Positions 7,461 to 35,814 of a DNA stretch of 35,814 nt are shown here, piece by piece. Source of the stretch: an uncultured Gammaproteobacteria bacterium. Lineage in GTDB: Bacteria > Patescibacteriota > Patescibacteriia > Patescibacteriales > JAGXOH01. Each line of letters opens with the position of its first letter. Position 1 is the first letter of the stretch. Location: NCBI GenBank assembly GCA_964512155.1, contig CAZEHL010000005.1:1-35814 (forward strand), in the 5' to 3' direction. The translations under genes were made by a program, and so were the position numbers. The notes under the pieces were generated by a model, which was not told the DNA's origin, ran no database searches, and was given only the letters and a program-made list of their open reading frames with translations.

Positions 7461-7477
7461 AAATAAATGTAAAAAAT

Positions 7478-8317: not shown

Positions 8318-8326
8318 AATAAGTAT

Positions 8327-9358: not shown

Positions 9359-9359
9359 A

Positions 9360-9389
9360 CCCCTCGATTTTATTCAACCGAGGGGTTTT
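9360..9389 (+). terminator. intrinsic terminator of the AsnRS-like/MTase/S66 operon
   Basis: cccctcg-12 nt-cgagggg followed by tttt, starting 2 nt after the stop. Confidence 0.7.
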
Positions 9390-9393
9390 GTAG

Positions 9394-9639: not shown

Positions 9640-9644
9640 TTACA
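9580..9644 (+). repeat. conserved intergenic element, copy B (distal part plus core; proximal part displaced to 10965 onward by the IS)
   Basis: ggctctataatatttagcgtggtggaaagctaaaaaaagcaggacatttctatttcccctttaca aligns at roughly 80 percent (by eye) with copy C at 15630-15694. Confidence 0.75.
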
Positions 9645-9650
9645 AGCAAG

Positions 9651-12839: not shown

Positions 12840-13340
12840 ATGGAAAAAATAAAAAAAATGGAAGAAGAAAATAGCAAAGAATCGATTAATTTATCTTTCC
12901 GGGAGGCTGGTAATGATGAGTTGGAAAGCATAACAGAAATATGGTGGGAAAATATTGCACAAGATGGGAGAGACTTAAAAGAAGATGCTAAAGAGCAACG
13001 GCTTAGAGAATATCAAGATAGAATTGAGAGCGAAGATGATTGTTTTATTTTGGCAGAGGCAGAGACAAAAGGGGTGGTAGGATATATCCATTGTGTTTTA
13101 GAAAGTAACAAATATGAATCCAAAGAAGGGGAAGATGTTACCGGATGGATAAAAACATTAGCGGTTGACAAAGAAATGCAGGGGCAAAGAATCGGAAGTA
13201 AATTAATTAAACAAGCGGAAGAGTATTTTAAAAAGAAGGGGGTAAGTAAAGTGTATATAAAAACCAATCAAGTTGATTTTTATGAAAAAGCGGGGTTTGA
13301 AAAATTTACTTATATATTAAAAAAGAATCTTGAAAATTAA
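12840..13340 (+). CDS. GNAT-family N-acetyltransferase
   Basis: 166 aa. Motif A LAVDKEMQGQRIGSKLIKQAEEYFKKKG. Confidence 0.75.
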   Translation: MEKIKKMEEENSKESINLSFREAGNDELESITEIWWENIAQDGRDLKEDAKEQRLREYQDRIESEDDCFILAEAETKGVVGYIHCVLESNKYESKEGEDVTGWIKTLAVDKEMQGQRIGSKLIKQAEEYFKKKGVSKVYIKTNQVDFYEKAGFEKFTYILKKNLEN

Positions 13341-14484
13341 ATTAATAGAAAATATGAATGAGGATAATGTAAATAAACAATTTCCTTCTACAAAAAAAAG
13401 GTTGCATGTTGAACTTACGGGTAAATGCAATTTAAAGTGCGTGTATTGCTTCCAGTCTTCGTGGAATACCCCTGAAAAAGTCAAGCAAGAATTGTCATCG
13501 GACGATTTTAAAAAAATCATAGATCAAGCTCAAGAAATTGGATGTGAAGTGGTAACTATCACAGGAGGAGAGCCTTTTTTAAGACGAGATATTTGGGATA
13601 TAATCAGATATTGCGAAGGACTTAAAGTGGAGATATTGACCAACAGTGAACTTTTACAAAAGAGCGATATTAGGTATATAGGAGAAAATTTACCTCAGGT
13701 AAAAGTGCTCAAGATAAGTATAGATGGCACAGAAGGACATGATATTACACGGAAGGGGAGTAGTTACACGAAAATTTTAGAGAATTTTTATTTATTTAAA
13801 CAATACACACAATGTAAGTTAATTGCCAATACTATTATCACTTATTTTACTGCTAGGGACCTACTTTCATTATATAAAGAGTTGAAAAAAGTCCCGATTG
13901 ATACCTGGCGGATAGATCTTCCTTTCTTGTCGGGTAGATATGTTGAGAACAGAGAGAATTATGAGATTTCACCGGGGAAAAGCATGGAGTTTATTATCCC
14001 TTTATTAAAGGAATATTTTGATGATAGAAAACCTTTTGAGCTTGAGCTATTTAATTTATATAAGTCCGGGATTATTACTAATGAATTATTTGAATTTGAC
14101 GTAAATTTGCACCCATGTTCCTATAGCGGATGGCGGACTTTATGCATCAAGCCCAATGGTGATTTAATTTTTTGTCCATCTTTGTTAACTCCTTTTTCCA
14201 ATATTAAAAATAAATATGGAGAGATTAATATATCGAAAGCAATTGAAGATGCTAAAAAAAATAATTTCTTTCAAATAAGTGTAGGAGACATTGAAAAATG
14301 TAAAAATTGTAAATATTTAAATATATGCGGAAGTGGGTGTAGGGCGGATGCGCTATATTGGGAGAATGACATTTTAGCCCCCGACCCGGTTGCCTGTAAA
14401 TATATGGAGTTGATGGAAAAGAGAGTTCTACCAATTTTGCCGCAAGAGGAGTCCGTTTATCTTAGTAAATTAATTAAACAATGA
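13330..14484 (+). CDS. radical SAM / SPASM-domain enzyme 1
   Basis: CNLKCVYC (CxxxCxxC) cluster near the N-terminus, GGEP motif, and C-terminal Cys-rich SPASM-like CKNCKYLNICGSGCRADA. The start is ambiguous: TTG at 13330 overlaps the GNAT stop, and an ATG lies at 13354. Confidence 0.85.
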   Translation: MKIKLIENMNEDNVNKQFPSTKKRLHVELTGKCNLKCVYCFQSSWNTPEKVKQELSSDDFKKIIDQAQEIGCEVVTITGGEPFLRRDIWDIIRYCEGLKVEILTNSELLQKSDIRYIGENLPQVKVLKISIDGTEGHDITRKGSSYTKILENFYLFKQYTQCKLIANTIITYFTARDLLSLYKELKKVPIDTWRIDLPFLSGRYVENRENYEISPGKSMEFIIPLLKEYFDDRKPFELELFNLYKSGIITNELFEFDVNLHPCSYSGWRTLCIKPNGDLIFCPSLLTPFSNIKNKYGEINISKAIEDAKKNNFFQISVGDIEKCKNCKYLNICGSGCRADALYWENDILAPDPVACKYMELMEKRVLPILPQEESVYLSKLIKQ

Positions 14485-15500
14485 GTTTGCAATTTATTCC
14501 CAAAATATTATCGGTAGATATAACTAATAAATGCAACAATAATTGTAAATATTGTAGAGATATACACAACAATATTAGTCGAAAATTGTCCAATAAAACT
14601 TTTAAAAGAAGAATAAAAAATATAGTTGGACAGATAGAGGGGGTGAAATGGATGAAATTGTCGGGTGGCGAACCTTTGTTAGAGTTGGATACAGTAAAAG
14701 ATTTTGTAAATTTTTGTTCCCAGAGGGGTATAAATACACTTTTACAGACGAACGGATTTCTTTTGAATAACGAAACTGTCCTTTCATTGAAAAAAGCCGG
14801 CATTTCAAAAATTCAAATAAGCATTGACGGTGGAAAAAGAAAACATGATGAGTTGCGGGGCAGAGGATCATATAAAAAAATAATTAATGCTTTAGAGCGA
14901 TGCATGAAACATGATATAATTTTTCAGTTAAAATGCACCATAACCAACAAGAATAAAGATAGTTTAGAAGATATATTTAGGATTGCTCTATATTATCCTC
15001 CGGAAAGGTTGAATTTTAGATTTCTGTTGCCCATAGGAAGGGCAAACAGTAAAGAGTTTAAAGAAATTGACTCCTCTAAGAGAAAAGAGATAATAGATCA
15101 ACTTTATACATTGTCCAACAATTACGGAGTGGAAATAATCACCGGAGATCCATGTTCATACTTATATCTATTTAAGCATTTAAAGAGCAAACAATTTTCT
15201 TATTATGAGAGTGCTTGTAATATTGGAATAGATTCTATACATATTTCATCAGATGGATTCTTAAAACCTTGTTCAATGATTGATTATAGTTTAGGGGATA
15301 TATTAAAGGATGATTTTTGGGACATTTGGAAGAACAATGATTTTCTTAAAAAAAATAGAGAAAAGAACTTTGTTAAATGCGGTATTTGTAGGTATAAATA
15401 TAATTGTGGCGGTTGCAGGGCGGTTGCCTTCGCGAATTACGGGAGTTATTTTGAAAAAGATAATTCATGTTTTATGTTTTGCAAGGAGAATAATTTATAA
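14481..15500 (+). CDS. radical SAM / SPASM-domain enzyme 2
   Basis: CNNNCKYC cluster, SGGEPLL, and C-terminal CGICRYKYNCGGCRAVA. The start overlaps the upstream stop (ATGA), indicating translational coupling. Confidence 0.85.
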   Translation: MSLQFIPKILSVDITNKCNNNCKYCRDIHNNISRKLSNKTFKRRIKNIVGQIEGVKWMKLSGGEPLLELDTVKDFVNFCSQRGINTLLQTNGFLLNNETVLSLKKAGISKIQISIDGGKRKHDELRGRGSYKKIINALERCMKHDIIFQLKCTITNKNKDSLEDIFRIALYYPPERLNFRFLLPIGRANSKEFKEIDSSKRKEIIDQLYTLSNNYGVEIITGDPCSYLYLFKHLKSKQFSYYESACNIGIDSIHISSDGFLKPCSMIDYSLGDILKDDFWDIWKNNDFLKKNREKNFVKCGICRYKYNCGGCRAVAFANYGSYFEKDNSCFMFCKENNL

Positions 15501-23179: not shown

Positions 23180-24976
23180 ATGGCAAAAAATAAAAACGGA
23201 CAATCACAGCGGACGGCCGGTTCCAAGAGGTTTTGGAAGCAGTTTTGGAGCATGCTCGAGCCTTCCCATAAGCAAATAAAGATTTTGTTTGTTTTTATCG
23301 CGGCTTTCCGTTTATCCCAATTGGCCGCCCCTTATATTTTAAAATTGATAGTGGATGAGCTTTCCCATTTTGATGCGGAGCAAATTTCTTACCTTTTGCT
23401 TCTTATCGCCGTTTTTTTCGCCAGTGAGCAATTTACTTCCATTTTGGGTTATTTTAAAGATAAAAGAACTTTTTCCATGGTAGTGGATGCGGAATATTAT
23501 CTTCCCACCCGCATTCAAGAAAAATTGGTTAACCTTTCGCTGGATTATCATGAACGGGAAAATACCGGCAATAAAATAATTAAGACCGAAAGAGGGGTGT
23601 ATAAAATAGCCGACCTATTGGCCAATTTGGCCTTTGAGGTGGTTCCCACTTTGGTCCAGCTGGTTGTTACTTTGATCGCTTTAAGTGTTTTGGATTGGCG
23701 CATCGGCCTTTCTTTCGCTTTCTTTTCTCCTCTTTTTATTTATATCACTTTCAAAGTGAACAAGAGGCTTTATCCGGTTAGAAAGAAAAGATATAAAAAG
23801 CATGAAGATTCTTCCGGCAAAATGGGCCAGTCCATTATCAATATCAATACGGTTAAATCCTTTTCTCAAGAATCAAGAGAAAAAAAGGAGTACGGGAGTA
23901 TGAGGCAAAAGTTGAGGAAATGGGAGTTGTTCGAATGGTTCAGTTTGTTGAAATGGAATTTAGGCAGGAATTTGATAATCGATTTGGGCAGGGTCAGTAT
24001 TCTGGTTTTGAGCGTGTATTTGGCTTGGCAAGGCGAGGTTACTATCGGTTCTTTGGTGTTTGCCGTTACTTTGTCCGAGAAGGCCTACTTTTCCTTGTAT
24101 CGGCTTTCCCGGTTTTATGACCGCATGGAGGAAGGAGCGGAGGCGGTGAATCGATTCGCGGATATAATAAACGAAGAGCCGAGCATTAAAAGCCCGGAAA
24201 ACGGCATAAAGCCGTCCAAGATAGAAGGAAGAGTGGAATTTAAGAACGTGGATTTCAGCTATGATAGCCGGGTTTCCAAACATTTTAAGGCCTTAAAGGA
24301 TGTGAATTTGGATATAAAGCCGGGCGGAGTTACGGCCCTGGTCGGTCCTTCGGGCGGAGGCAAGACCACTATCGCCAAGATGATCTATCGCCATTATGAT
24401 CCCCAAAAAGGACAGGTGCTATTGGATGGACGGGATCTTAGGGAGTATGACTTGAAAATTTTAAGAGGGTCCATAGCTATTGTTCCCCAAGAAGTGGAAG
24501 TTTTTGATGTAAGCGTGAAACACAATATCTCTTATGCCAAGCCGAACGCTTCTTTCTCTGAAATAAAAGAAGCGGCCCAAGTGGCCAATGCGGATGAATT
24601 CATTAATAACCTGCCGGACGGATACAATACTTTGGTGGGCGAGCGGGGCATGAAGCTTTCCGGCGGACAAAGGCAGAGGATCGGCATTGCCCGGGCGGTT
24701 TTGGCCGACCCGTCCATTCTTATTTTTGACGAGGCCACCAGTAATTTGGACAGTTACAGCGAAAAATTGATCCAAGAGTCTATGGAAAAGATCGGCCGGG
24801 GCAGGACGATGATCATCATCGCCCATCGATTGAGTACCATTAATAAAGCGGATAAGATCATAGTGTTGGAAGACGGCCGGGTGGTGGAGCAAGGCGACCA
24901 TAATGAATTGGCTCGGAATAAAGGCGGTCTATACCGGAAATTATTGGACCTGCAGAAGACAGGGAATGTGGATTAA
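23180..24976 (+). CDS. ABC exporter, fused permease/ATPase (MsbA/MdlB-like)
   Basis: N-terminal 6-TM region, Walker A GPSGGGKTT, signature LSGGQRQR, Walker B ILIFDEATS. The ORF-track start 23156 lies inside the hairpin, so ATG 23180 is preferred. Confidence 0.9.
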   Translation: MAKNKNGQSQRTAGSKRFWKQFWSMLEPSHKQIKILFVFIAAFRLSQLAAPYILKLIVDELSHFDAEQISYLLLLIAVFFASEQFTSILGYFKDKRTFSMVVDAEYYLPTRIQEKLVNLSLDYHERENTGNKIIKTERGVYKIADLLANLAFEVVPTLVQLVVTLIALSVLDWRIGLSFAFFSPLFIYITFKVNKRLYPVRKKRYKKHEDSSGKMGQSIININTVKSFSQESREKKEYGSMRQKLRKWELFEWFSLLKWNLGRNLIIDLGRVSILVLSVYLAWQGEVTIGSLVFAVTLSEKAYFSLYRLSRFYDRMEEGAEAVNRFADIINEEPSIKSPENGIKPSKIEGRVEFKNVDFSYDSRVSKHFKALKDVNLDIKPGGVTALVGPSGGGKTTIAKMIYRHYDPQKGQVLLDGRDLREYDLKILRGSIAIVPQEVEVFDVSVKHNISYAKPNASFSEIKEAAQVANADEFINNLPDGYNTLVGERGMKLSGGQRQRIGIARAVLADPSILIFDEATSNLDSYSEKLIQESMEKIGRGRTMIIIAHRLSTINKADKIIVLEDGRVVEQGDHNELARNKGGLYRKLLDLQKTGNVD

Positions 24977-24993
24977 AAGATAAATTTTGAATT

Positions 24994-25023
24994 AAAAACC
25001 CCGTGAGCATCACGGGGTTTTTT
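24994..25023. terminator. bidirectional intrinsic terminator between the convergent ABC exporter and the DHH-like gene
   Basis: aaaaaccccgtg-agcat-cacggggtttttt: 7-bp GC stem flanked by an A-run and a T-run. Confidence 0.8.
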
Positions 25024-25037
25024 GTTAGTTGAAAGAG

Positions 25038-26366
25038 CTAGTTGTTTTTTCTTTTAAAGAAACATTTTTTCAGTTGCCACTGAAAAATAGAACATTTTTT
25101 GCATTCGCCGGGAGTACAGCCATGCGGGAAATATTCTCTGTCCACCGCATGTCTGATAATCTCCGCCAGTCTTTCCAATATTTTCGATGCCGTATTGCCG
25201 AAATCTTTAGCCGGCGGAGCCGGGATTTTCAAACTTCCCCAAAGAATGTTGGAAAAGCCGGTTTCCACTTTGTTGTAATATAAAGGTTCGGTCCCGCTTA
25301 AGACTCCGTCTTTTATCAATTCTTGCCAATGGGGAATTTTATTTCCTCTTCTGAGAAGAATTTCGGCCCTTAAGGCTTTTATTATTTCCGGGAAAATGGC
25401 TTGCCCGATCTTTTTACCGGCGTTTACGAAGATTTGAAAGTTTTTGGTTTCCGGATCCACTTTTATTAGGATCCAAGGGCTGTTTCTGTTTTTTATTTTA
25501 CTTTGAAGCAAGGGATGGGAATTTTCCTTGTCGGAATAGATCATGTATCTGGCCGCCCGCAGAAAGGTGGGACTGGAATTCAAGGAGGTTATAACCGGTA
25601 TATCTCCGAAGATGCGCACTTGAGATTCGACAAAATCACGCGTATCTTTCAGAAACATCGATTGTTCATTGTAAACCGCTTCCAATACCAAACTTGTCCA
25701 TTTTCCTACTTGTTCCGAATCCAGATAAATGAAATAGTGGCAGAAGTTTCGAGGTGAGGCTTTAAACAATTTTTCCGGATCTTCCATTCTTTCTATCCAT
25801 CTTTGCACTGTGTCTATGCCCGGCATGTCCGGATCTTTGTGGATGAATTGTCGGGCTTTGTCCCGGAATATTTCCAAATTGCGATTTAGGTTTGGAGGAT
25901 TATCAAAGAAAGCGTCAAAGATGGGAAGGAAACATTTTTGGTATATTTCCTTGTCGCCCATCGTAAGATGCAGTCTTTTAAGGATCCGGGCGATGTCCAT
26001 GTCATCATTTTCGGTTTTTTTATCTCCCATTTCCACCAATTTTTGCCATTGTTTGACCTTGTTTTCCTCCAATCCCATTGTTCCCTTGTAGCTCAGAAGA
26101 ATATCAAAGGCGGTAGACCGCCTCTCCTCTTTATCTTCCGCTTGGTGATGGTCAAAAATTTCCACCTCCGGTCCTTCACTTATTTCTTCCGGCGCGATAT
26201 CGGCGAAGATAAGTTTTTTTATATCTCCTTTTTTAAGTTTTTCTTTTACCGCTTCCATTCCGAAAACTTTTTCTTGTATCAGATCATTTCTTTCCAATAA
26301 TCTTAAACAGCTTCCGCCGTCAAAGTCGAACTGCTGATGGGTTACCCCTACTATTTTTTTGTTCAT
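25038..26366 (-). CDS. DHH-like phosphoesterase N-terminal domain fused to an uncharacterised about 370-aa region
   Basis: 442 aa. VGVTHQQFDFDGGSCLRLL (motif I DxD plus GS), LIFADIAP (motif II), EIFDHHQ (DHH motif). No obvious DHHA1 GGGH. C-terminal Cys cluster HGCTPGECKKC. GGAGG RBS; 16 nt after the helicase stop. Confidence 0.6.
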   Translation of the reverse strand: MNKKIVGVTHQQFDFDGGSCLRLLERNDLIQEKVFGMEAVKEKLKKGDIKKLIFADIAPEEISEGPEVEIFDHHQAEDKEERRSTAFDILLSYKGTMGLEENKVKQWQKLVEMGDKKTENDDMDIARILKRLHLTMGDKEIYQKCFLPIFDAFFDNPPNLNRNLEIFRDKARQFIHKDPDMPGIDTVQRWIERMEDPEKLFKASPRNFCHYFIYLDSEQVGKWTSLVLEAVYNEQSMFLKDTRDFVESQVRIFGDIPVITSLNSSPTFLRAARYMIYSDKENSHPLLQSKIKNRNSPWILIKVDPETKNFQIFVNAGKKIGQAIFPEIIKALRAEILLRRGNKIPHWQELIKDGVLSGTEPLYYNKVETGFSNILWGSLKIPAPPAKDFGNTASKILERLAEIIRHAVDREYFPHGCTPGECKKCSIFQWQLKKCFFKRKNN

Positions 26367-26382
26367 GAGTTGACCTCCGTTT

Positions 26383-29300
26383 TCAGTTCTCTTCCTTTTT
26401 TTCTTTCAATTTCTTTTCGCTAAGTATTATTTTTCCTTTTTCTCGATCAACATTAATAACCAGAAAAGTTAGGACATCTCCCATTTGAGGCAGGTCTTTT
26501 TCCGGATCCTGTTCGTTTTTCAACGCCATTTCCCCCAAAGGGACGAATCCGTTTAACTTGATATTTTCCCGCAGTATTTTTACTGTGAGACCGGAAATGT
26601 TGCCGCTTTGTTTGTAAGTCATTATTCGGTCGATCTCCGCGTCCACCACATCCCCTTCGTTTAAACTTTTTCCGGCTTTGGCATAGTCGAAATTGGTTTT
26701 AAACGCGTAGGTCCAGGAGTGTTTTACTATTTTTTCTTTATCTTGATCGCTTGCCTCCCAGGTTTCCAGATCCTCCATGGTTAGAAAAAAAGGGAAATGT
26801 AAACATTCGAGATTTTCATCATATTCCCATCCTTTTTCCGCCGGTAGACTGGATCTTTCATATGTTTTTAATTTTTTGAACATATAACAACGATCGTCTT
26901 TTCTTAAGCTTACGGTTATCGGGATTTGGCTGTTTTTCGACAACTCTTGAGGGATGCTTTTGGAAAAAACAGTAAAAAAATGAATTATTTCCGGATTTTG
27001 CCAAGTATAGACGATAACCTTGTTTCGGTCCCGGTCTATTTTTTCCACAAAACCGGCCATTTCTTTTTGGCCGTATTTTTCCGCTTCCAGCTTGATCTCT
27101 TTCAGGTCATCTAAAAAAAGGTTCAATCTGGAAAAGATGGGAAAACCTTCCAAGTTTTTATCTATTACCGGTAAAGTCAGCCAAGTGCCCTCCAAAAGTT
27201 TAAGGGCATTGCCGAAATAAGAAAGACTAATTTCGCCGATGTCCAGCGGAAATTCCAATCCATCTTCCGTTTCCGTTAACACCCATCCTCTCGGGTCTTG
27301 GTAGGATTGAAACACTCCTTTAATTCGAATTCGAATTCGGCCGGCCGATATTATTTCTTTTAAAGATTGGTTGATATCAAACGGTTCCGCTATGGCGAAA
27401 ATGTTTCCGTTATTTCGTTTCCATCCCCGCAGTAGAGCTTTTTTGCCTTTTCTTTCATCTTTCCATCTTACTTCGATTTTACGGTTGATATTGTTAAAAT
27501 TTTCGGCTATCTCCTCGGTTCGATAGTTTATTTGGGGAACGTAGTCGGCCCGCAAATAGTTGTCCATCAACATGGCAAAATCCAGTTCTTCGCCGTATTC
27601 TACCCGCAGTTGGGTCGGTGCTTGCAATAGTTTTCCGATATAGTATTTTCCTCCTTTGGGATAAACCAACAGTCTGCTTCCCGGAGGGATGATTTGATCC
27701 GGGAACAATTCCGGAGTAAAATCGGAGTTTATATCCGGTTTCATTAAAGCGCAAGCCACCGATACCATTTTTTCTTCGCCGTTTACCAATCCTTTTTTCT
27801 TGGTGGCGGTTAATAGAATGGCCCTATCTCCTTCTTGCCAATTGCCGGCGCAAGCATCGGAAATAAATCCGGTTACTTTTTCGTTTTCTTTTAGTTGATA
27901 GATCAATCCTTTTTCGCTTCCTTTTATTTCCACTTCTCTTCCTTTCAAAATTTCGGATAGTATAAGCCGTAATTTGGATACCCTGGTCAAATCTATTTCC
28001 CGAGGGGATCTGTTTTCGGCTTTGGCCAAAAATATTTCTCTTATTTCCAGATATTTATCGAGTATTTCTTGGAGGGCGGAGTTGTTAACAAAGTTTTTGG
28101 TCGCCCAATCTTTGTCCTTACCTTCTTCTCGGGATCTTTTAAAGCAGTAAATTATTTTCAGGAGAAATTCCAGATCGTCGCGACATCCGATTTGCAAGGC
28201 ATCCAGAATTTTTGATACCCGCATTTTGGTTTCGGCGGTCCACCTGGGATCCCAAACCAAAATTCCATGCATGGGATGAGAACTTTCGGCTCCGGTTCTG
28301 GCCTCTCCTTTATCCGTTTCCAGGGAGGAAATTAAAGCCAACATTTCCTCCAAACATCCTTGATGATCCGCCGTATCCAAAAGGATTTTCTTTTGAATGG
28401 TTAAGGGTATCCGAAAGGATTCCAGTCCGTCTTCGGTTACGTTTCCTTGATCATCCACGTACTTCCCTTGAAAAAGAGAGGAAAGGGATCTGTCCATTTC
28501 ATAACCGAAAGCATGGTCGTTGGCATTTTCTCCGATAAAAGAGAAATTGTCACGGATGCCGGCGGATTTAATGTTAAGGAGAACTTCATCGGCTTGACTT
28601 CGGAATACTTCCGGGACGGTTTGGTCCCGGAAGGCGTTGAATTGTTCTCGGCTATACAGGCAATATACATATCCTTTGGCGTTTCTCCCCACTCTGCCGA
28701 ATCTTTGTTTGCACCCGGCTTGGCTGTGCCGAATATTGGGGAGGGTGGAAGTCAGACTTTCCGGGTCCCATTGGGATTGTTTGATAAAACCGGATTCCAC
28801 TAAAAAAACAATGTCATCCAAAGTATGGGAGGTTTCCGCAATGTCGGTAGTAAGCAAGACTCTTCTGACTTTGCCTTTTTTGTTGAATCTCCTTGAAACT
28901 TCTTCTTCTCCTAAGCGGCTAAAAATAGGCAGAATCGGAATTTTATTTCCGCCCGGAATATTGACTATTTTTTCTTCGATCAATTCTCGGGATCTTTCGA
29001 TCACCGCTTCCCCGGGAAGAAATACCAGAATACTTCCCGTTTTAGTGTTTTTTAAGATCTCGATCACATAAGAAGCGGCCGCTTGGGGTAATTGCCCCTC
29101 TTCGGGAGGGGATTCCATGAATTTCCAGAAGTTTTTCCTGATTTTTTCCTTGCGGCATAGCCAGCAATCGCAATCCTTTTTAGGCCCGTCTTGCCAAAAA
29201 TGGACGGTATAGTCGGTTTTTTCTTCCAAGTCTTGGGAGAGATCCAGAACATCGGTATCTATTCCTTTGTTTTCGAAAGCGTTTTTGAATTCTTTAATGT

Positions 29301-30099
29301 TTATAGTGGCCGAGGCTATAATGGCCTTTAAATGGGGGTGCAAAGGAAGCTTGTATTGAAGAAGAGCTAAAAGACTATCTATATTCAAGCTTCTTTTATG
29401 TGCTTCATCCACCATAATAAGGCTGTATCGGCCTATGTGTCCGTCCCTTATCCAATTTCTCAAGGATCCGTCGGTTACTACCACTCCCAAGTTATGATTG
29501 TCATAGTCCTCTCTCCCTCGATGTCTTAGTCCCAATATTCCCAAAGGTTTAACCGAAGATTGTTTCAGCTCTTTTTCACTGACCACCTCCGGTATTCTTT
29601 CCACCGCCGCGCTTAAAGGTTGGGTTTGGATAACCTGGCCTTGATGCAACAAGTCGTCGATAAAACTGCCTTGATATTGCGGGGGAGGGTCCAGTAATCT
29701 ATACAGGACGTAAACGGATTTACCGGTGCCGGTGGGACTGGCCAAAACCACTACCTGGTTCTTTTCAAGTTTTTCATATAATTGCTCGATATGATCATCG
29801 GTCATTCTAACCCTTAAGCCGGATTCTTCCTTTGATTCGGGGATCTCGGTATAGCTTCGATCTCCGTGGGAAGCATAATTGCTCCGGCAATAAAGAGAGG
29901 GGATCATAACCCGCCGGGAAGGAAGTTGACGAAAATAACTTATTCTTATTTCCCTTTTATCCTTCCGCCGACTTTTCCTGCATTTGTCACATCTTTCCGG
30001 GAGACTTTCTCCTTTTTCCGTCATATACTCCAACACTTTGGTGGAGATAACCACCATATTCTGACAACTTTTACACCTATAGCTCAATTCTTTTGTCAT
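26383..30099 (-). CDS. DEAH/RHA-type (HrpA-like) helicase with N-terminal zinc ribbon and C-terminal S1 domain
   Basis: 1238 aa. CKSCQ...CDKC ribbon, motif I ASPTGTGKS, II MVDEAHKRS, III ASAT, V TDIAETSHT, VI QRFGRVGR. C-terminal S1-like GDVVDAEIDRI...GFVPLGEM...GDVLTFLVINVDREKGKIILSEKK. Confidence 0.88.
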   Translation of the reverse strand: MTKELSYRCKSCQNMVVISTKVLEYMTEKGESLPERCDKCRKSRRKDKREIRISYFRQLPSRRVMIPSLYCRSNYASHGDRSYTEIPESKEESGLRVRMTDDHIEQLYEKLEKNQVVVLASPTGTGKSVYVLYRLLDPPPQYQGSFIDDLLHQGQVIQTQPLSAAVERIPEVVSEKELKQSSVKPLGILGLRHRGREDYDNHNLGVVVTDGSLRNWIRDGHIGRYSLIMVDEAHKRSLNIDSLLALLQYKLPLHPHLKAIIASATINIKEFKNAFENKGIDTDVLDLSQDLEEKTDYTVHFWQDGPKKDCDCWLCRKEKIRKNFWKFMESPPEEGQLPQAAASYVIEILKNTKTGSILVFLPGEAVIERSRELIEEKIVNIPGGNKIPILPIFSRLGEEEVSRRFNKKGKVRRVLLTTDIAETSHTLDDIVFLVESGFIKQSQWDPESLTSTLPNIRHSQAGCKQRFGRVGRNAKGYVYCLYSREQFNAFRDQTVPEVFRSQADEVLLNIKSAGIRDNFSFIGENANDHAFGYEMDRSLSSLFQGKYVDDQGNVTEDGLESFRIPLTIQKKILLDTADHQGCLEEMLALISSLETDKGEARTGAESSHPMHGILVWDPRWTAETKMRVSKILDALQIGCRDDLEFLLKIIYCFKRSREEGKDKDWATKNFVNNSALQEILDKYLEIREIFLAKAENRSPREIDLTRVSKLRLILSEILKGREVEIKGSEKGLIYQLKENEKVTGFISDACAGNWQEGDRAILLTATKKKGLVNGEEKMVSVACALMKPDINSDFTPELFPDQIIPPGSRLLVYPKGGKYYIGKLLQAPTQLRVEYGEELDFAMLMDNYLRADYVPQINYRTEEIAENFNNINRKIEVRWKDERKGKKALLRGWKRNNGNIFAIAEPFDINQSLKEIISAGRIRIRIKGVFQSYQDPRGWVLTETEDGLEFPLDIGEISLSYFGNALKLLEGTWLTLPVIDKNLEGFPIFSRLNLFLDDLKEIKLEAEKYGQKEMAGFVEKIDRDRNKVIVYTWQNPEIIHFFTVFSKSIPQELSKNSQIPITVSLRKDDRCYMFKKLKTYERSSLPAEKGWEYDENLECLHFPFFLTMEDLETWEASDQDKEKIVKHSWTYAFKTNFDYAKAGKSLNEGDVVDAEIDRIMTYKQSGNISGLTVKILRENIKLNGFVPLGEMALKNEQDPEKDLPQMGDVLTFLVINVDREKGKIILSEKKLKEKKEEN

Positions 30100-30117
30100 T
30101 TTTTGCCTCCTTTGTGA

Positions 30118-32955
30118 TCAATACCAAGGATCCCCCTTTTTATAATAACCGCCGGGGGTCAAAATTCTCGGGGTAACGATCAATTCTCCTTGATATTTCT
30201 TTAATAGATCAAGTATAGCCCTGTAAACACCTATTTCCGCCGATTCCAAACCGGTAGTATGGTATAATTGGAGACTTAAGCCGGACCAATTCCGATTCTT
30301 AATGATGGGAATATAATCCAAAAGGATCCGCATATTTAAACTCAGATCATCTTTCGCGGTTAGATCACCTCTTAGAAATTTTAAGATCTCTTCTACCGAG
30401 TTCCAAGTTCGGCTATAAGCCAGATTCTCTTGATCAGCCGAATTTTCTCTATGCTGGATTTCTCTGTTCCTGATCAGATAACGATCCACGAATTTATCAG
30501 CTTCCATATGGCGGCAAGATACAGTGCCTATATTATACCGAAACAGATCAAGATGATTGTCAGGTCTCTCTAAGGAGGGTAAAGAGAATAAATTAAGAGG
30601 GCCGCCTTGGCTTCCATCTCCATAAGAGATAAAGAGATTCAACTCTTTAGAGGAAGGTAGAGCCCGGATATAATCCCGGATCATCTCCACAAAGACATTG
30701 GCCCGAATTTTACCCAATAAAGAAGCCAATCCGTAAGGAACGCCGATTTTTAACGACTCCCTTAATATCGAATGAGCTTTATCGATCTCCTTCCAGTTAC
30801 CGGCATAGATCCTTTCTTGTTTTTTCCGACTAATATTCTGGTCAACAGAATTCCGAAGCGAAGCGGAAAAGGTAAAGCTTTCCTGATGGAGTTCGGTAGT
30901 CGCTTGTCGGGGCGGTAGGTATTCTTGCTCCCAATGCTTAACTACCACCACTATTCCGCCGGTAACTTCCCGAAGGGGAGATAATAAGGATTCGTTTTTT
31001 ATTTTTTCCTTAAAACCATCCATCTCTTCGGGCCGGACAAAAGGAAGGGTGATGCCTTCCATTTTTCTTTCCCGTTTTAAAGCGGACTCCAATTCTAAGG
31101 AAAGCTCGCCTTCAACATCGGCTATTATCCGATGATTTTGGCTCGCCTCCCTTTCCATAACTTCGCACATTAAAGAGAATTCATGGCCGTAACGCTTCAC
31201 CTCTCTTTTATGGAGTAATTGATAAGCAAACATTACCGCGCTTTCGGAAGCGTTTTGAATGGCGCGATTGGCCCGGGACTCTTCGGATACGTTCCAATAT
31301 TCCTCCGGCACTTCTATTATTTGCAGTTTCTTTTCCTCTTTTCGGGAGGAAAATTGAGCCAAACTCTTAACTTTATACATTCTGTTTTTTATTTCTTCGT
31401 CCAAATAAACATCCATTCGAGCGGGGGCAAAAAATACCTCCACTCCTTTATCCCGAGCTTTTTGAACGAATTTCTCCATTTGTTGCCAATAAGGACAATA
31501 ATAAGGAGAAATATATTCATTGCTTAGAACTAAACATTTGGCTTGGACTCTGCCGCGATCGTTATGAAGTTGTTTTAGGTAACCGACCAACCTGGGTAAT
31601 TCCCGATCCATATTGTGGGGAACAAAAGGTTGGCACAACATCAATATCGGCTCTTCAGCTTTGAACCATCTCTTTTCTCGAAGGTTTTTATGAGAAGGAA
31701 AAGGGAAGCAAAAATCTTGATCACAACTAAGGGTCCACAACCTGTTTTCCTGGGGTTCCAGAAAGCAATGGGCTTTGGCGTTCTCGGTATCTTCCAAAGA
31801 CAATCCCTGATTCATCTCCGCCATAATAGCGTCCCGCAACCGGGTGGCCATAAAAGCGGAGCGTCCGAAATTAAGAGACTCGGCATAAGACAACCTATCC
31901 CCGAAATGATCGGACCCCAAGATCAGAGCTTCCGGCCTGGAAGCATTAAGAAAAGCCCAGACCACTTCTTCCCGAGTCCAAACATTGGTGTAAACCAATT
32001 CGGTTATCACTTCTTTTTTGGCGAATCCCGCTTTTTCCAGCTCCTCAATCCTTTGAATCGCCTTTTCCGGGAGATCCAAAGTCCGAAACCAAAGCTCGAC
32101 CGCCTCGTAATGTTCAATAACTCCTTTATCCGCGCCGGATAAAGAAGTTCCATACTCGGCGGCCAATTCGGTTATCTCCTCGGGAACCGCAACCGGGATC
32201 CGCCATCCTTTTAAGGGATTACCCCGACCGGTGTTATATTCCTGTTTGATCTTGTCCCAATCTTTTTTGGGGGTTATCCTACCGTTCTCATCTTCCCTGA
32301 TATCGCGAGTAAAAGTTAACTTTAGACATCCGCAATAATCACGGCCCCGGGCGAAGGCCTCGCTTAAGAGAATCTTAACCGGATCCCGGGCTGCCACATT
32401 GGGTTGAGGAATAGGAAAAAATTCATCTATTTCCAAACACCCTTCAATAAAACTAAACCGAAAGGCGCCCAAAGCTACCACATAATCCTGGACTTTAAAA
32501 ACAGGGGTACTCCAATCTTGAATAGTGGAACTCCCGGTTTCTTTTTGGCGGTTCCTGATCCGTTGCCAGGCCACTTGGGACCTTGCTTCCAGGTTTTGAT
32601 GATACTCCAGCCATTCGGAGAAAGTATAACCAATATCCAACGGAGCATCCTTTTCCTGCAAGGATACTTCCGCTAAAGGAGCGTCTCCGTTGGCGGAGCG
32701 GGAGATGTCCAAGCAAACGGCCTTACTCTTTATGAAAACGACCGGAACCAAAGTAGATGGCAGATCCGGCCTTTCATGCCGGAGAAGACTGGTGGCTTGG
32801 ATAATATTAATGGGCACCTCCTTGGTGGAGATACCCATAACCTGAAAGCCGTCGATGATCGCGGAACCTTGACTAGATAGAAATTCTCTATAACTCAAGG
32901 GAAACTTTACTTTCAACTGAAGCTGAATTTCTTCCAAGGTGTTTTCTGTAATCAT
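30118..32955 (-). CDS. 945-aa protein: N-terminal SUKH (SMI1/KNR4) domain fused to about 800 aa with no motif recognisable by eye
   Basis: N-terminus LEEIQLQLKVKFPLSYREFLSSQGSAIIDGF...VCLDISRS...YTFSEWLEYH matches the SUKH pattern seen in the three neighbouring small paralogs. GGAGG RBS. 18-nt gaps on both sides. Confidence 0.75.
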   Translation of the reverse strand: MITENTLEEIQLQLKVKFPLSYREFLSSQGSAIIDGFQVMGISTKEVPINIIQATSLLRHERPDLPSTLVPVVFIKSKAVCLDISRSANGDAPLAEVSLQEKDAPLDIGYTFSEWLEYHQNLEARSQVAWQRIRNRQKETGSSTIQDWSTPVFKVQDYVVALGAFRFSFIEGCLEIDEFFPIPQPNVAARDPVKILLSEAFARGRDYCGCLKLTFTRDIREDENGRITPKKDWDKIKQEYNTGRGNPLKGWRIPVAVPEEITELAAEYGTSLSGADKGVIEHYEAVELWFRTLDLPEKAIQRIEELEKAGFAKKEVITELVYTNVWTREEVVWAFLNASRPEALILGSDHFGDRLSYAESLNFGRSAFMATRLRDAIMAEMNQGLSLEDTENAKAHCFLEPQENRLWTLSCDQDFCFPFPSHKNLREKRWFKAEEPILMLCQPFVPHNMDRELPRLVGYLKQLHNDRGRVQAKCLVLSNEYISPYYCPYWQQMEKFVQKARDKGVEVFFAPARMDVYLDEEIKNRMYKVKSLAQFSSRKEEKKLQIIEVPEEYWNVSEESRANRAIQNASESAVMFAYQLLHKREVKRYGHEFSLMCEVMEREASQNHRIIADVEGELSLELESALKRERKMEGITLPFVRPEEMDGFKEKIKNESLLSPLREVTGGIVVVVKHWEQEYLPPRQATTELHQESFTFSASLRNSVDQNISRKKQERIYAGNWKEIDKAHSILRESLKIGVPYGLASLLGKIRANVFVEMIRDYIRALPSSKELNLFISYGDGSQGGPLNLFSLPSLERPDNHLDLFRYNIGTVSCRHMEADKFVDRYLIRNREIQHRENSADQENLAYSRTWNSVEEILKFLRGDLTAKDDLSLNMRILLDYIPIIKNRNWSGLSLQLYHTTGLESAEIGVYRAILDLLKKYQGELIVTPRILTPGGYYKKGDPWY

Positions 32956-32973
32956 TGGTTTACCTCCTTTGCA

Positions 32974-33453
32974 TTAAAATTCTTCTCTTATTTCTCTTTC
33001 TAACTCCATCCTTTTTAGTAGCCATGTCCAGAAATCAGAGGCTTCTAACCAGAAATCCTTGCTTTTTTCTTGAGGGGTGTTGGGATAAGTTTCTTCACTC
33101 GGTGCATCATGTTGCCAAAAAATGACTTTTCCGTGATCTTCGCCTCCGCAAACAAGACAATGATAATCACCGTTACCAATATCATTGAGGGGAATAAGAT
33201 TTTTGGGGAATCTTTCAGGGTGATATTTTTGAAGATCAAGGGCTTCCTTAACTCCTTCTTTTCCTCCAAGTTGTCCTTCCCCCACTGAGAGCCATCCATA
33301 AATTCGTAAAAATTCCTTATACTGTTCGGGGTACTTCACTCCTAAAGCTTCTTCATTTTTCTGAATCTCTTGCTTGCTTAATGGCTCATCATGAGCAAGT
33401 TTCAATCTTACCACTAACTCTTTAACCCGGTTGATTTTTTGTTGCTTGGTCAT
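32974..33453 (-). CDS. SUKH (SMI1/KNR4) family immunity protein
   Basis: 159 aa. EIQKNEEALGVKYPEQYKEFLRIYGW...GNGDYHCLVCGGEDHGKVIFWQHD...KDFWLEASDFWTWLLKRM. Starts 4 nt after the toxin stop. Confidence 0.85.
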   Translation of the reverse strand: MTKQQKINRVKELVVRLKLAHDEPLSKQEIQKNEEALGVKYPEQYKEFLRIYGWLSVGEGQLGGKEGVKEALDLQKYHPERFPKNLIPLNDIGNGDYHCLVCGGEDHGKVIFWQHDAPSEETYPNTPQEKSKDFWLEASDFWTWLLKRMELEREIREEF

Positions 33454-33457
33454 ATAG

Positions 33458-34255
33458 TTAAGTGTTACTTTTTCTTCTTAATTGTTTAGCCTCTTCTACT
33501 TTTTCGTATAAAGCATCAATTACTTTTTTGTGTTTACTATAACCCCCTAAAAAATCTTTAGTCAGCTTTTTCATTATATTTGGCTGCATTCTTTCCCATT
33601 CTTGTCTATTCTCCTCACCTAACTTTTTGCCTTTTTCATGCATCACACCATAATCTTGTCTTCCGTGCGATTTCATAGTTACGACACCAATATTATCTTT
33701 TTCTTGTTCAATATGGTGCCAAGTTACCTTATCATCCCACGGATTATAAGGGTTTCTGCCGGCTAACAGGTTACCCAGATTTTCAATTGTGGGTTGAACA
33801 GGAGAATAGACTTTGATCTCCGGCCATTCTTCTGTTTCCTTGTTTTTATCTGAATCTTCTTCGTCATCCTGAAAAAACTCCACTTTATCACCAGCATCAT
33901 TAAATCCGGGAGTAAAGAAAGGAGAAGGATCTTCTTCTCTTGAGATCAAGAGAGCATCATTGGGGTTGCTGTTTTTTATCCTCTCTGCCAATCTATCCGC
34001 CTCTTGCTCACTAACATCGCCTCTCTCGTATTCTATTATAACATCATTAATTGGCTTGGCGCCATAAATATCTTTCATTTTTTGCATCTGTCTATCAATT
34101 CGCTCTTTTTCTTGTTGTGGCTCCTTTATGTTTTTGTTGACCTCTTCCCATTTTTCCGCGGTAAGATAACTTTTATCTAAACCGCCGTGCTTACCTTGCC
34201 TCGCTTCCTCGATCTTTCTAAAATCTTCATTAGTCACCTCATTGCCACATCCCAT
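33458..34255 (-). CDS. WHH-type HNH/EndoVII-fold nuclease toxin (no recognisable trafficking domain)
   Basis: C-terminal NPWDDKVTWHHIEQEKDNIGVVTMKSHGRQDYGVMHEKG fits the WHH nuclease signature (WHH plus two downstream His). Start placed at ATG 34255 (AGGAGG 7 nt upstream); the track start 34288 overlaps the -10. Confidence 0.7.
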   Translation of the reverse strand: MGCGNEVTNEDFRKIEEARQGKHGGLDKSYLTAEKWEEVNKNIKEPQQEKERIDRQMQKMKDIYGAKPINDVIIEYERGDVSEQEADRLAERIKNSNPNDALLISREEDPSPFFTPGFNDAGDKVEFFQDDEEDSDKNKETEEWPEIKVYSPVQPTIENLGNLLAGRNPYNPWDDKVTWHHIEQEKDNIGVVTMKSHGRQDYGVMHEKGKKLGEENRQEWERMQPNIMKKLTKDFLGGYSKHKKVIDALYEKVEEAKQLRRKSNT

Positions 34256-34289
34256 TTTCGGCCTCCTGTTGGCTTTTAGGTTTAACAAT

Positions 34290-34318
34290 ATTTAACCGTT
34301 TGTTCTTTTGGTTGTCAA
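34290..34318 (-). promoter_or_regulatory. candidate promoter of the toxin-helicase operon
   Basis: Minus-strand reading: TTGACA (34318-34313), 17-nt spacer, TTAAAT (34295-34290), about 35 nt upstream of ATG 34255. Confidence 0.5.
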
Positions 34319-34443
34319 AGAACATTTTGATATTCAAATTTTAGCCAAAACAATACAAAAAATCTTTAACGAAAAAATTTGAATATCATTAGAGATTTAA
34401 CATAAAATCGGAAAAAAATCAATAGTTCTTTATAATAAAATAA

Positions 34444-34476
34444 TAAAAAACAACCCCGGTGATATCCGAGGCTGTT
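34444..34476 (-). terminator. intrinsic terminator after the tandem SUKH pair
   Basis: Minus strand: caacagcctcgg-atatca-ccggggttg (bulged, about 9 bp) followed by ttttttatt. Confidence 0.5.
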
Positions 34477-34522: not shown

Positions 34523-35113
34523 TTATGAATTTAAATTATTTCTCCCTTCCTTTTCTTTTTCGTTCGCATCCTTGATCTCTTGGAATTTCCTGAAAAGGTA
34601 ATCCCAGAAATCATATCCTTCCAGCCAGAAGTCTTCCTTTTTGCCGTTGATGTGAGTGATGGTCCAGCTAGGATGATTCTGAAACCATTCTTCCGTAGGA
34701 ATATTGGGATAGGCTTGATCCGGAACACAATAAGAGTCCCAATAGACCACTTGGCCAAATCTTTCTCCTTTGCCAACCACACAGTAATATCCGCCCATGC
34801 CATCCAGATTTACTATTATAAGGTCATCGGGTAGTTCTAGGCCATCTCTTAACTCCAGTGTCATCCCTAGGGCGGACCATAAATACTCTCCAGAATTTAA
34901 TAAAGCATCACTATCTTCCGGAATCACACTACCTAATAAATCCATAGAGGGGATACACCCGTAATTGAGCAGAAATTCCCTGTATTCCGGAGGAGTTTTC
35001 AGGTCCAACTTTTTCTCTATTTCCTGAATTCCGTCCTCGGTCATTGGTTCCCCGAAATCCAGATTTGATTCCCGGGTCCAAGCGTTCATTTTTTGTTTGA
35101 TTTCTTGATTCAT
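34523..35113 (-). CDS. SUKH (SMI1/KNR4) family immunity protein, tandem paralog 1
   Basis: 196 aa. GIQEIEKKLDLKTPPEYREFLLNYGC...LDGMGGYYCVVGKGERFGQVVYWD...EDFWLEGYDFWDYLFRKF. Confidence 0.85.
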   Translation of the reverse strand: MNQEIKQKMNAWTRESNLDFGEPMTEDGIQEIEKKLDLKTPPEYREFLLNYGCIPSMDLLGSVIPEDSDALLNSGEYLWSALGMTLELRDGLELPDDLIIVNLDGMGGYYCVVGKGERFGQVVYWDSYCVPDQAYPNIPTEEWFQNHPSWTITHINGKKEDFWLEGYDFWDYLFRKFQEIKDANEKEKEGRNNLNS

Positions 35114-35116: not shown

Positions 35117-35719
35117 TTAGTCTTTACTGTTTTTATCGCCTTCCTCTTCCTTTTCCTTTTCCTTTTCGTTCGCATCCTTAATCTTCTGGAATTTCCTGAA
35201 TAGATAATCCCAGAAATCATAGCCCCTCAACCAAAAGTCTTCTTTTTTGCTGTTGATGTGGCCGACAGTCCAGTTAGGGTGCCTCTGAAACCAATTCTCT
35301 GTAGGGATATTGGGATAAACCTGATCCGGGACGCAATAAGAGTCCCAATAGACCACTTGGCCAAATCTTTCTCCTTTGCCAACCACACAGTAATATCCGC
35401 CCATGCCATCCAGATTTACTATTATAAGGTCATCGGGTAGTTCTAGGCCATCTCTTAACTCCAGTGTCATCCCTAGGGCGGACCATAAATACTCTCCAGA
35501 ATTTAATAAAGCATCACTATCTTCCGGAATCACACTACCTAATAAATCCATAGAGGGGATACACCCGTAATTGAGCAGAAATTCCCTGTATTCCGGAGGA
35601 GTTTTCAGGTCCAACTTTTTCTCTATTTCCTGAATTCCGTCCTCGGTCATTGGTTCCCCGAAATCCAGATTTAATTCCCGGGTCCAAGCGTTCATTTTTT
35701 GTTTGATCTCTTGGTTCAT
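35117..35719 (-). CDS. SUKH (SMI1/KNR4) family immunity protein, tandem paralog 2
   Basis: Identical to paralog 1 except one residue (L for S at position 15) until position 143 (V for A), then divergent. Start set at ATG 35719 (GGAG RBS) rather than the track start 35767. Confidence 0.85.
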   Translation of the reverse strand: MNQEIKQKMNAWTRELNLDFGEPMTEDGIQEIEKKLDLKTPPEYREFLLNYGCIPSMDLLGSVIPEDSDALLNSGEYLWSALGMTLELRDGLELPDDLIIVNLDGMGGYYCVVGKGERFGQVVYWDSYCVPDQVYPNIPTENWFQRHPNWTVGHINSKKEDFWLRGYDFWDYLFRKFQKIKDANEKEKEKEEEGDKNSKD

Positions 35720-35732: not shown

Positions 35733-35814
35733 TTAAGATTGATTGTTTTCTTCCTTAATTGATTCAATAAAGTCCTCTGTCCAATCGCCCAAATGTTGCC
35801 TTAACGCAAACTCA
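35733..35814 (-). CDS. 3' end of a further minus-strand gene running off the window
   Basis: Open frame to the window edge, ending ...EFALRQHLGDWTEDFIESIKEENNQS*. The stop is 13 nt before the next ATG and overlaps its RBS. Confidence 0.4.
   Translation of the reverse strand, partial: EFALRQHLGDWTEDFIESIKEENNQS

Follow-up and report, generated by a model that had tools for sequence, protein, structure and literature searches.

A conserved and apparently undescribed candidate conflict system in which leader-tagged effectors are encoded with a SUKH-headed giant protein and a DEAH/RHA helicase

We analyzed contig CAZEHL010000005.1 from a Patescibacteria group bacterium over its whole length of 35,814 bp (the window; all gene coordinates are counted on it) and find good support for assigning a five-gene operon on its minus strand to a conserved, apparently undescribed multi-gene conflict system. 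The make-up of this system is likewise well supported: one or more effectors tagged with a common N-terminal leader, an immunity gene after most of them, a giant protein headed by a SUKH domain (g3), a helicase (g4) and, in one clade, a DHH/DHHA1 phosphoesterase (g5). The reading of its function that we favor, which we hold tentatively and at slightly under an even chance, is an intracellular, helicase-gated effector system in which the leader would dock the effector, the immunity protein or the head of g3 would keep it silent, and the helicase would trigger its release.

The operon consists of the effector g1 (33458-34255, 265 amino acids), the SUKH immunity protein g2 (32974-33453, 159 amino acids), the SUKH-headed core protein g3 (30118-32955, 945 amino acids), the zinc-ribbon DEAH/RHA helicase g4 (26383-30099, 1238 amino acids) and the DHH/DHHA1 phosphoesterase g5 (25038-26366, 442 amino acids). 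A preliminary description of this DNA had reported five co-directional genes with gaps of 4, 18, 18 and 16 nt and GGAGG sites before the last three; the open reading frames are exactly as claimed, and GGAGG precedes g1 as well as g3, g4 and g5. Translation of g1 starts at the ATG after AGGAGG, which agrees with the NCBI annotation (P0067, an identical 265-amino-acid product); a 276-amino-acid version from a TTG start was discarded as an over-extended reading frame. The GC content of the genes is 0.38 to 0.445, against 0.387 for the whole contig.

Distribution of the gene set

Homologs of g3 numbered 28 in a set of 5.8 billion proteins, and an exhaustive search returned about 120 cluster representatives at E <= 1e-30, many of them split into halves. 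We annotated 57 further loci with hidden Markov models (HMMs) of g3, g4, g5, the leader and SUKH, and counted occurrences over 34 non-redundant clusters at 90% g3 identity; L-numbers (L001, L003, L010, L022 and so on) denote these other loci compared with the window. The hosts of the 34 clusters belong to at least seven lineages, i.e., Patescibacteria, Nealsonbacteria, Saccharibacteria, Atribacteria, Thermotogae, Dehalococcoidia and Pirellulales, and one locus lies in a complete 689-kb Nealsonbacteria genome.

The association of the genes is close. A leader-bearing protein of 210 to 370 amino acids adjoins g3 in all 24 clusters whose sequence extends ~1.2 kb or more beyond the 5' end of g3, and is encoded upstream of it in nearly all. 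The helicase gene lies next to g3 or in its vicinity in 26 of the 28 assessable clusters, mostly directly downstream; it is upstream or divergent in L008, L049 and L058. The neighborhoods thus bear out the linkage of effector, g3 and helicase within the five-gene set first put forward. They do not extend it to the DHH gene, which occurs in about 6 of 16 assessable clusters, all of the clade closest to the window, or to the S1 domain of the helicase, which passes the Pfam threshold in the window's branch only. The core is therefore effector, g3 and helicase, usually with a separate immunity gene. The identities of g3 and g4 drop in parallel (91/76, 60/66, 48/48, 40/39, 30/31 and 25/28%). As families, g3, g4 and g5 are rare, with a patchy distribution, and they are found only with each other and with effector genes, most of which have an immunity gene; the flanking genes differ from lineage to lineage. 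Altogether, the comparison shows a conserved gene set that has been transferred among lineages.

It could be argued that an ordinary toxin/immunity pair merely adjoins a housekeeping HrpA-like helicase and an NrnA- or RecJ-like DHH enzyme by chance. The helicase core is indeed like that of HrpA and HrpB, DHH enzymes are common housekeeping nucleases, and the window otherwise holds housekeeping genes (aminoacyl-tRNA synthetases and an ABC transporter). However, g4 scores 176.5 bits against the NCBIfam HrpA model (cutoff, 722.75) and 134 bits against the HrpB model (cutoff, 546), and is therefore not an ortholog of either. The census contradicts chance adjacency as well, with g3 to g5 forming rare, patchy families that always accompany leader-bearing effectors in genomic contexts that vary between lineages. 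We give this explanation next to no weight, and the view of the operon as a non-housekeeping unit, already taken in the preliminary description, stands.

Known defense genes adjoin the system in four loci: DruE in L003 (6e-85, PADLOC), type II methyltransferases in L008 and L032, and an MzaA-like gene in L026. In the Atribacteria locus L003 (12059-16888), the system is followed directly by an uncharacterized gene for a protein of 774 amino acids and then by the DruE-like helicase, which gives the region a Druantia-type look; this neighbor suggests a defense island. With four loci, the link to defense islands is anecdotal.

Effectors, immunity genes and cassette exchange

The effectors share a leader of ~40 amino acids, with the pattern M-x(1-3)-C-[GNQT]..., an acidic helix and then G...PE[IV]; its Cys is invariant across an alignment of 29 unique effector sequences. 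A leader HMM derived from 7 loci also matches the N termini of proteins in independent loci, and in g1 it matches amino acids 1-42 (34130-34255) at 5e-23. The copies differ mostly by synonymous changes, and the leader peptide is therefore under selection; it is kept across phyla as the DNA diverges. The preliminary description had seen no secretion or trafficking domain in the toxin; this needs correcting, since the toxin, like all the effectors, does carry a conserved N-terminal module, the leader. We considered whether "MGC..." might be an N-myristoylation or palmitoylation signal, and rejected the idea because Gly2 is not conserved among leaders (MPC, MAIC and MATEC occur); the Cys alone is.

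Behind the common leader stand at least five unrelated C-terminal toxin types. One is of the HNH class, in its WHH form in the window and L010 and in its LHH form in L001 and L022; the LHH-type family passes the Pfam LHH threshold (2e-6, 28.3 bits). Another, with 15 members, has an HExxH...E motif, and another has an E...D...DxK motif suggestive of a PD-(D/E)xK nuclease. No fold could be assigned to two further types. Effector types 1 and 4 gave no match when compared with PDB sequences, and these two are assigned by motif only. A common leader ahead of varied toxins is the signature of polymorphic effectors that all use one apparatus. This bears on the earlier suggestion that the large proteins might be an immunity-associated nucleic-acid repair module. 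The effectors comprise HNH nucleases, proteins with a PD-(D/E)xK-like motif and proteins with the HExxH motif, and repair of toxin damage by g3 to g5 was rejected because non-nuclease (HExxH) effectors sit behind the same leader.

The effector of the window, g1, had been described as a WHH nuclease toxin. After a charged linker, it has a putative HNH/EndoVII "WHH" domain at about amino acids 155-217 (33605-33793), and W179, H180, H181, Q184, H197 and H206 are invariant in its family. The Pfam models fall short: LHH matches g1 at 0.01 and 16 bits, below the cutoff of 23.3 bits, and the WHH match is likewise sub-threshold. Within the family, LHH matches 7 of 8 members (best, 0.0011) and WHH reaches 0.003. 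An HNH/EndoVII nuclease is thus probable, with the invariant motif in favor of the original claim and the Pfam scores short of settling it.

In the window, g1 is followed by g2, which matches Pfam SMI1_KNR4 at 3.6e-16 and is 72% identical to the gene after the WHH effector in L010; it is the predicted cognate SUKH immunity protein of g1. The locus does not end with g1. To its right, also on the minus strand, lie two tandem paralogous SUKH immunity genes 3 nt apart, u1 (34523-35113; Pfam SUKH_5, 1.6e-14) and u2 (35117-35719; SUKH_5, 3.5e-14; start at the ATG after AAGGAG), which are 94-97% identical to the SUKH genes paired with the LHH-type effector in L001. Beyond u2 comes the 3' end of another effector gene, of the LHH type (35737-35814, minus strand), which the contig end truncates; its final 26 codons translate to EFALRQHLGDWTEDFIESIKEENNQS*, matching the C termini of P0074 and P0075. 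The window thus holds two tandem effector/immunity modules, and the locus reaches beyond the five genes: the preliminary description had correctly recognized one unit, which continues rightward with two SUKH genes and the 3' end of an effector gene. The assembly probably broke at the right end of the window because of repeated leader or SUKH sequences.

The family of immunity gene depends on the type of toxin. SUKH genes follow the HNH types, and a small-protein family with the motif "KLK[IL]YG" follows types 3 and 5. Type 4 effectors have no free immunity gene ahead of g3, and the SUKH-headed g3 comes directly next. In two candidate phyla radiation (CPR) loci, sigma-70-like genes lie beside the system (L006, 9028-9882, and L015, 6545-7354, both on the minus strand). 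The sigma-like protein of L006 appears, by eye, to be fused to a "KLK[IL]YG" domain, the putative immunity for non-SUKH effector types, a fusion that hints at a transcriptional output.

Contigs from a sister strain (L022-L024) show how the effector genes are replaced. They are 98.6% identical to window positions 23610-32886, a stretch that spans g3 from codon ~24 through g5 into the ABC-transporter gene, and they have an LHH-type effector and one SUKH gene in place of g1 and g2. In blastn comparisons with L022 and L024, homology breaks at window positions 34178 and 32886, which therefore delimit a variable cassette at 32887-34177 (minus strand) with the g1 toxin domain, g2 and the first ~23 codons of g3. 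The promoter, 5' untranslated region (UTR) and first 26 codons of g1 (34178-34402) are ~90% identical to the L022 segment ahead of its different effector. We take this repeated promoter-leader segment as the 5' recombination arm of the effector cassette; cassettes are exchanged when recombination takes place there and at the start of g3. Separately, L010 has an orphan, 5'-truncated SUKH gene (6752-7177), ~80% identical to u1 and u2 and with no LHH-type effector adjoining, which is probably the relic of a displaced cassette.

It is tempting to see in all this a system of interbacterial polymorphic toxins. The leader would then be a trafficking or loading signal for some export or contact-dependent delivery route, immunity would shield kin, and g3 to g5 would form a loading, chaperoning or regulatory apparatus. 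Patescibacteria live attached to other cells, and many of the hosts are Patescibacteria. The defining layout of such systems, in which the N terminus is conserved, the C-terminal toxin varies and an immunity gene comes next (PMC3482391, PMC3113570), is found here, and WHH and LHH toxins with SUKH immunity are typical of them (PMC3113570). The duplication of u1 and u2, the orphan SUKH of L010, the cassette swapped between sister strains and the several complete effectors within one locus fit as well. However, Pfam matches neither the effectors nor the other operon proteins to a known secretion or trafficking domain. By eye, the leader is short and hydrophilic, and no hydrophobic N-terminal segment was seen in the operon proteins or effectors, no dedicated signal-peptide or transmembrane predictor having been run on them. 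No secretion or membrane genes are conserved beside the system across lineages, and the system is present in free-living Atribacteria, Dehalococcoidia and Thermotogae. An ATP-dependent helicase of the RNA type is not known to take part in protein export. The orphan in L010 is 5'-truncated and therefore not obviously maintained by selection. We regard interbacterial toxins as an unlikely explanation, if one with real evidence behind it.

The promoter-leader segment also raises the question of regulation. At 34178-34402 (minus strand), it holds the TTGACA (34318-34313), 17-nt spacer and TTAAAT (34295-34290) proposed earlier as the promoter. These are in the sequence, the -35 element is invariant in four loci (the window, L022, L001 and L010), and the whole 5' UTR is conserved ahead of effector genes there. 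A consensus scan did not call the promoter because its -10 hexamer, without A at position 2, is weak. Multi-effector loci hold two or three effector genes, all of them complete and preceded by a promoter and leader of their own. In L028 (1656-7998), L054 (1925-10207) and L026 (722-5886), a direct repeat of 150-300 nt lies ahead of each effector cassette. It includes a TTGACA-type promoter, the codons for the leader and a palindrome (e.g., TAGTTGTTTAAAGCAACTA), which a regulator could use as its operator. In L028, the promoter-UTR-leader repeat stands ahead of g3 as well.

A regulated toxin-antitoxin or addiction module might be expected to look like this, with helicase and g3 controlling translation or stability of the effector mRNA through the 5' UTR and leader, and no sensing of invaders. 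The conserved promoter and UTR, repeated ahead of each effector and in L028 of g3, and the palindromes in some copies agree with such a module, as do the RNA-remodeling DEAH/RHA class of the helicase, its S1 domain here and the sigma-70-like genes in two CPR loci. Against it, the leader is conserved as a peptide across phyla, with diverged DNA and synonymous changes between copies, and the 5' UTR and leader RNA of the window show no unusual structure (z = -1.5) and no Rfam match. It also leaves a 945-amino-acid multi-domain partner unexplained. We consider it quite improbable.

Core proteins and possible modes of action

The preliminary description had noted a second SUKH domain fused to about 800 amino acids of unrecognizable sequence, which is what we find in g3. 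The SUKH head occupies amino acids 2-117 (32605-32952, minus strand; Pfam SUKH, 3.3e-10), and both the g3 profile and its structural model match YobK (PDB 2prv) there. The ~800-amino-acid body belongs to no family in Pfam or PADLOC (SUKH was the only match among 29 members scanned), and against PDB sequences the profile matched in the SUKH head and nowhere else. The AlphaFold2 model (predicted local distance difference test [pLDDT] 86.9, predicted template-modeling score 0.82) predicts that this part consists of confidently folded domains without a sequence family. Family members are ~930-1150 amino acids long, and one (L013) has an additional SUKH domain fused to it. The head is unchanged between strains with different toxins and is therefore unlikely to be toxin-specific; a generic docking role, e.g., leader binding, is a reasonable inference. 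In many relatives, g3 is split near residue ~520 into an N-terminal half of ~500-550 and a C-terminal half of ~370-420 amino acids, and in several CPR loci g4 is split near residue ~527 (examples of g3/g4 splits: L019, 9959-12567; L015, 13721-17831; L020, 10691-14817). The split points are likely domain or subunit boundaries.

The helicase g4 carries the zinc-ribbon, DEAH and S1 modules originally ascribed to it. The ribbon lies at amino acids 7-48 (29956-30081, minus strand), with the pattern CxxC...CxxC and a weak treble-clef match in Pfam. The DEAH/RHA core lies at about amino acids 100-597 (28309-29802), with DEAD and Helicase_C matches, and a Pfam S1 domain at amino acids 1147-1227 (26419-26661). 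C9, C12, C37, GTGKS, DEAH, SAT and QRxGRxGR are invariant in 9 diverse members; with its motifs intact, the enzyme looks catalytically competent. The closest structures are Prp16, Prp43, DHX8 and HrpA (1e-44 with a single sequence, 1e-78 with a profile), with alignments that end at about amino acid 597. HA2_C gave one weak match (0.006) among 9 members, and the HA2 ratchet and OB domains were otherwise undetected.

For g5, proposed earlier as a DHH-type phosphoesterase, Pfam gave no match, DHH and DHHA1 included; a distant homolog, P0066, carries PF01368. A profile search of PDB sequences found nothing, and comparison of folds alone succeeded. The AlphaFold2 model (pLDDT 91.3) has top PDB matches that are all DHH/DHHA1 proteins at probability 1.0, with E values from 1.5e-7 to 1e-4: RecJ-Cdc45 (archaeal, 1.5e-7), PAP phosphatase, RecJ2, PggH and NrN. 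Among 38 homologs, H10, D14, D16, D56, D72 and H74 are invariant and H73 nearly so, and in a C-terminal four-Cys cluster C417, C425 and C435 are invariant and C422 nearly. The proposal is thus upheld by motif and fold, and the enzyme looks catalytically competent from its residues. It is a clade-specific accessory.

The structural model of g3 gives rise to a further alternative, sensing of a second messenger or oligonucleotide. Here g3 would be a Cap4-like receptor of the SAVED or CARF kind, possibly with a nuclease domain of its own, and its ligand would be a nucleotide or short RNA made in the course of infection; ligand binding would free the effectors and g5 would degrade the ligand. Foldseek matches the g3 model to 13 chains of Cap4 (an endonuclease with a SAVED domain) at E values of 4e-5 to 7e-4 and probability <=0.97, and more weakly to Cap5 and Can2; the fold of g5 is like that of the signaling-nucleotide DHH phosphodiesterases PggH, GdpP and NrN (SAM-AMP). 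However, superposition of g3 on Cap4 gives TM-scores of 0.12 and 0.23 with a root-mean-square deviation (rmsd) > 20 Å, and the Cap4-like and GNAT-like hints are not localizable to specific domains. None of 29 g3 members has a SAVED or CARF sequence signal in Pfam or PADLOC. The internal repeat expected of a SAVED-like pseudo-dimer was not detected by hhalign, and a search of BFVD found nothing at E <= 0.001 (best, 7.7e-3, a small protein of ~130 amino acids). No locus was found to have a cyclase (CD-NTase, Cas10 or SMODS), and g5 is missing from most. The model-based likeness to Cap4 is a lead, not a result, and we think ligand sensing improbable.

This brings us back to the helicase-gated reading. 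The system would act within the producing cell, in keeping with the secretion features looked for and not found above. There the leader would dock whichever effector is encoded onto a complex of g3 and g4, and either the free immunity protein or g3 through its SUKH head, or the two together, would silence the toxin. The helicase would translocate 3'->5' on RNA or single-stranded nucleic acid, the S1 domain helping here. On meeting invader-derived or aberrant nucleic acid, ATP-driven remodeling would release or activate the effector, and the infected cell would arrest growth or die. Where present, g5 might degrade the unwound strand or short oligonucleotides, or reset the system. Release of the abortive-infection type, as supposed in the preliminary description, is a plausible candidate mechanism.

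Several points weigh against this reading. The docking of the leader to g3 and g4 and the trigger are pure inference. Three features are classic of interbacterial polymorphic toxins and unusual for abortive infection: tandem duplication of immunity genes (u1 and u2), cassette replacement at the strain level, and arrays of two or three complete effector genes with their own promoters. They suit competition between bacteria just as well. Two clusters have g3 with no detectable g4 nearby, L045 and L051/L057. In the latter, 7.9 kb was searched on either side of 6113-10877 on a 75-kb contig, and an effector, a "KLK[IL]YG" gene and g3 were found with no helicase, which would be encoded elsewhere or lost. 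A scan of IMG/VR viral contigs found no copy of the system, and no other defense genes were found elsewhere in the window. Finally, the modeled likeness to Cap4 hints that g3 senses a nucleotide ligand and is more than a simple tether.

A bolder version of the helicase-gated reading, which we would call doubtful though hardly far-fetched, is a previously unrecognized intracellular immune class in which a Cys tag plugs a swappable toxin/antidote pair into a SUKH-headed, possibly SAVED-like scaffold and a DEAH/RHA helicase. If true, the class would be widespread in CPR/Patescibacteria and in further subsurface lineages, cell suicide on invasion would run on a logic taken over from polymorphic toxins, and this would be the first DEAH/RHA-helicase-based defense and the first dedicated multi-effector defense described for CPR bacteria.

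The operon is bracketed by the two strongest terminator-like sites of the region. The left one was known from the preliminary description (as 24994-25023), and we find there a 13-pair hairpin at 24994-25022 that is common to the operon and the convergent ABC-transporter gene and bidirectional, since an A-run and a T-run flank the stem. The right one (34449-34476, minus strand) has an 11-pair stem with 6 GC pairs followed by a T-run, and divides the upstream effector module from the five-gene operon. A scan of the window found no Rfam families or tRNAs. Elsewhere in the window, an IS4-type DDE transposase (9673-10899, minus strand; DDE_Tnp_1 and DUF4372) is the sole mobile-element gene and has housekeeping surroundings. 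At 12840-15500 (plus strand), there are genes for a GNAT acetyltransferase and, after it, for a pair of radical-SAM proteins, of which one contains a SPASM domain; together they could form a small peptide- or cofactor-maturation cluster unrelated to the operon. A 372-amino-acid protein like class II aminoacyl-tRNA synthetases (6342-7460, plus strand) has the tRNA-synt_2 catalytic part only and could be an AsnA- or EpmA-type paralog, not a full synthetase.

Comparison with known systems

The preliminary description had put the system forward as a candidate undescribed one, and both databases and searchable literature agree. The g3 body, g5 and the leader have no model in Pfam, NCBIfam or PADLOC. 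In PADLOC-DB v2, g3 and g5 are unmatched, g4 matches at the P-loop level only (DinG, 0.002) and g2 weakly matches PDC-M40A (2.8e-5). Literature searches on SUKH, helicase, anti-phage, Patescibacteria and polymorphic toxin themes found no description of the gene set. A SUKH-, DEAH- or DHH-linked helicase context is absent from PMC3482391 and PMC7159879, in both of which the word "helicase" occurs; the word does not occur in PMC3113570, and SUKH, DEAH and DHH are unmentioned in the main text of PMC7159879. The system defines three protein families that Pfam and NCBIfam do not have, namely, the leader, the body of g3 and the DHH enzyme of the g5 type, along with two or more new effector domains and a new immunity family. 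For CPR bacteria, which are ultra-small and about whose immune repertoires little is known, it is a candidate for conflict or defense. If the helicase-gated reading holds, polymorphic toxins and helicase-gated antiviral systems would be joined through a 40-amino-acid adaptor, the invariant-Cys leader. This modular leader is directly testable and could serve as a tag for loading proteins onto a complex.

Among antiviral systems, Hachiman offers a parallel, with its HamA nuclease held by the HamB helicase. Both systems encode a superfamily-2 helicase with a nuclease effector, and in both nucleic-acid sensing is proposed to free a silent toxin. However, the helicase here is of the DEAH/RHA type with a zinc ribbon, whereas that of Hachiman is Ski2/Hel308-like, and here there are polymorphic effectors with dedicated immunity and a ~945-amino-acid scaffold; no PADLOC model matched. 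Apart from SUKH proteins, the g3 model finds its best structural match in Cap4 of the cyclic-oligonucleotide-based antiphage signaling system (CBASS), and both are multi-domain, cytoplasmic proteins of conflict systems. The low TM-scores given above, the lack of sequence similarity and the lack of a cyclase in the locus set them apart, and g3 is twice the size of Cap4 and has a SUKH head.

The helicase shares the RecA1/RecA2/winged-helix core and all motifs with HrpA, HrpB, Prp16, Prp43 and DHX8. It aligns with them over about amino acids 100-597 only, and its zinc ribbon and ~550-amino-acid C-terminal region are specific to its family. Likewise, g5 shares the two-domain fold and motifs I-III with DHH/DHHA1 proteins (RecJ/Cdc45, NrnA/PAP phosphatase, PggH and NrN), and is paired with a helicase as DHH proteins are in RecJ-RecQ and Cdc45-MCM. 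In contrast to these, it is about 10-13% identical to any solved structure, lacks a Pfam DHH/DHHA1 match and has a large helical insertion and the C-terminal four-Cys cluster.

The conflict systems dependent on nucleoside triphosphates described by Kaur et al. in 2020 (PMC7159879) also tie varied effectors to one NTPase core through a short common N-terminal adaptor. Their cores are STAND or other NTPases, however, their adaptors are Death-like or other defined domains, and their effectors lack dedicated immunity proteins. The present system has no family in common with these or with Hachiman. Polymorphic toxin systems (Zhang et al. 2011, PMC3113570; Zhang et al. 2012, PMC3482391) share with it the conserved N-terminal module with a variable C-terminal toxin, the WHH and LHH nucleases of the HNH/EndoVII class together with REase-like and zincin-like motifs, and the immunity gene directly downstream, with duplicated immunity genes and cassette recombination. 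In contrast, the N-terminal module here is only ~40 amino acids long, its Cys is invariant, and none of the known domains for secretion or trafficking matches it. At 210-370 amino acids, the toxins are small, and array members are complete genes with promoter and leader, not 5'-less orphans. In place of a secretion system, the conserved partner genes encode a giant cytoplasmic protein with a SUKH head and a DEAH/RHA helicase. Three of the defining features of polymorphic toxins are thus present, and the fourth, a recognizable trafficking domain or secretion pathway, is not. In all, we rate it as a system of polymorphic toxins and immunity proteins whose tag is novel, as is the helicase-based apparatus that goes with it.

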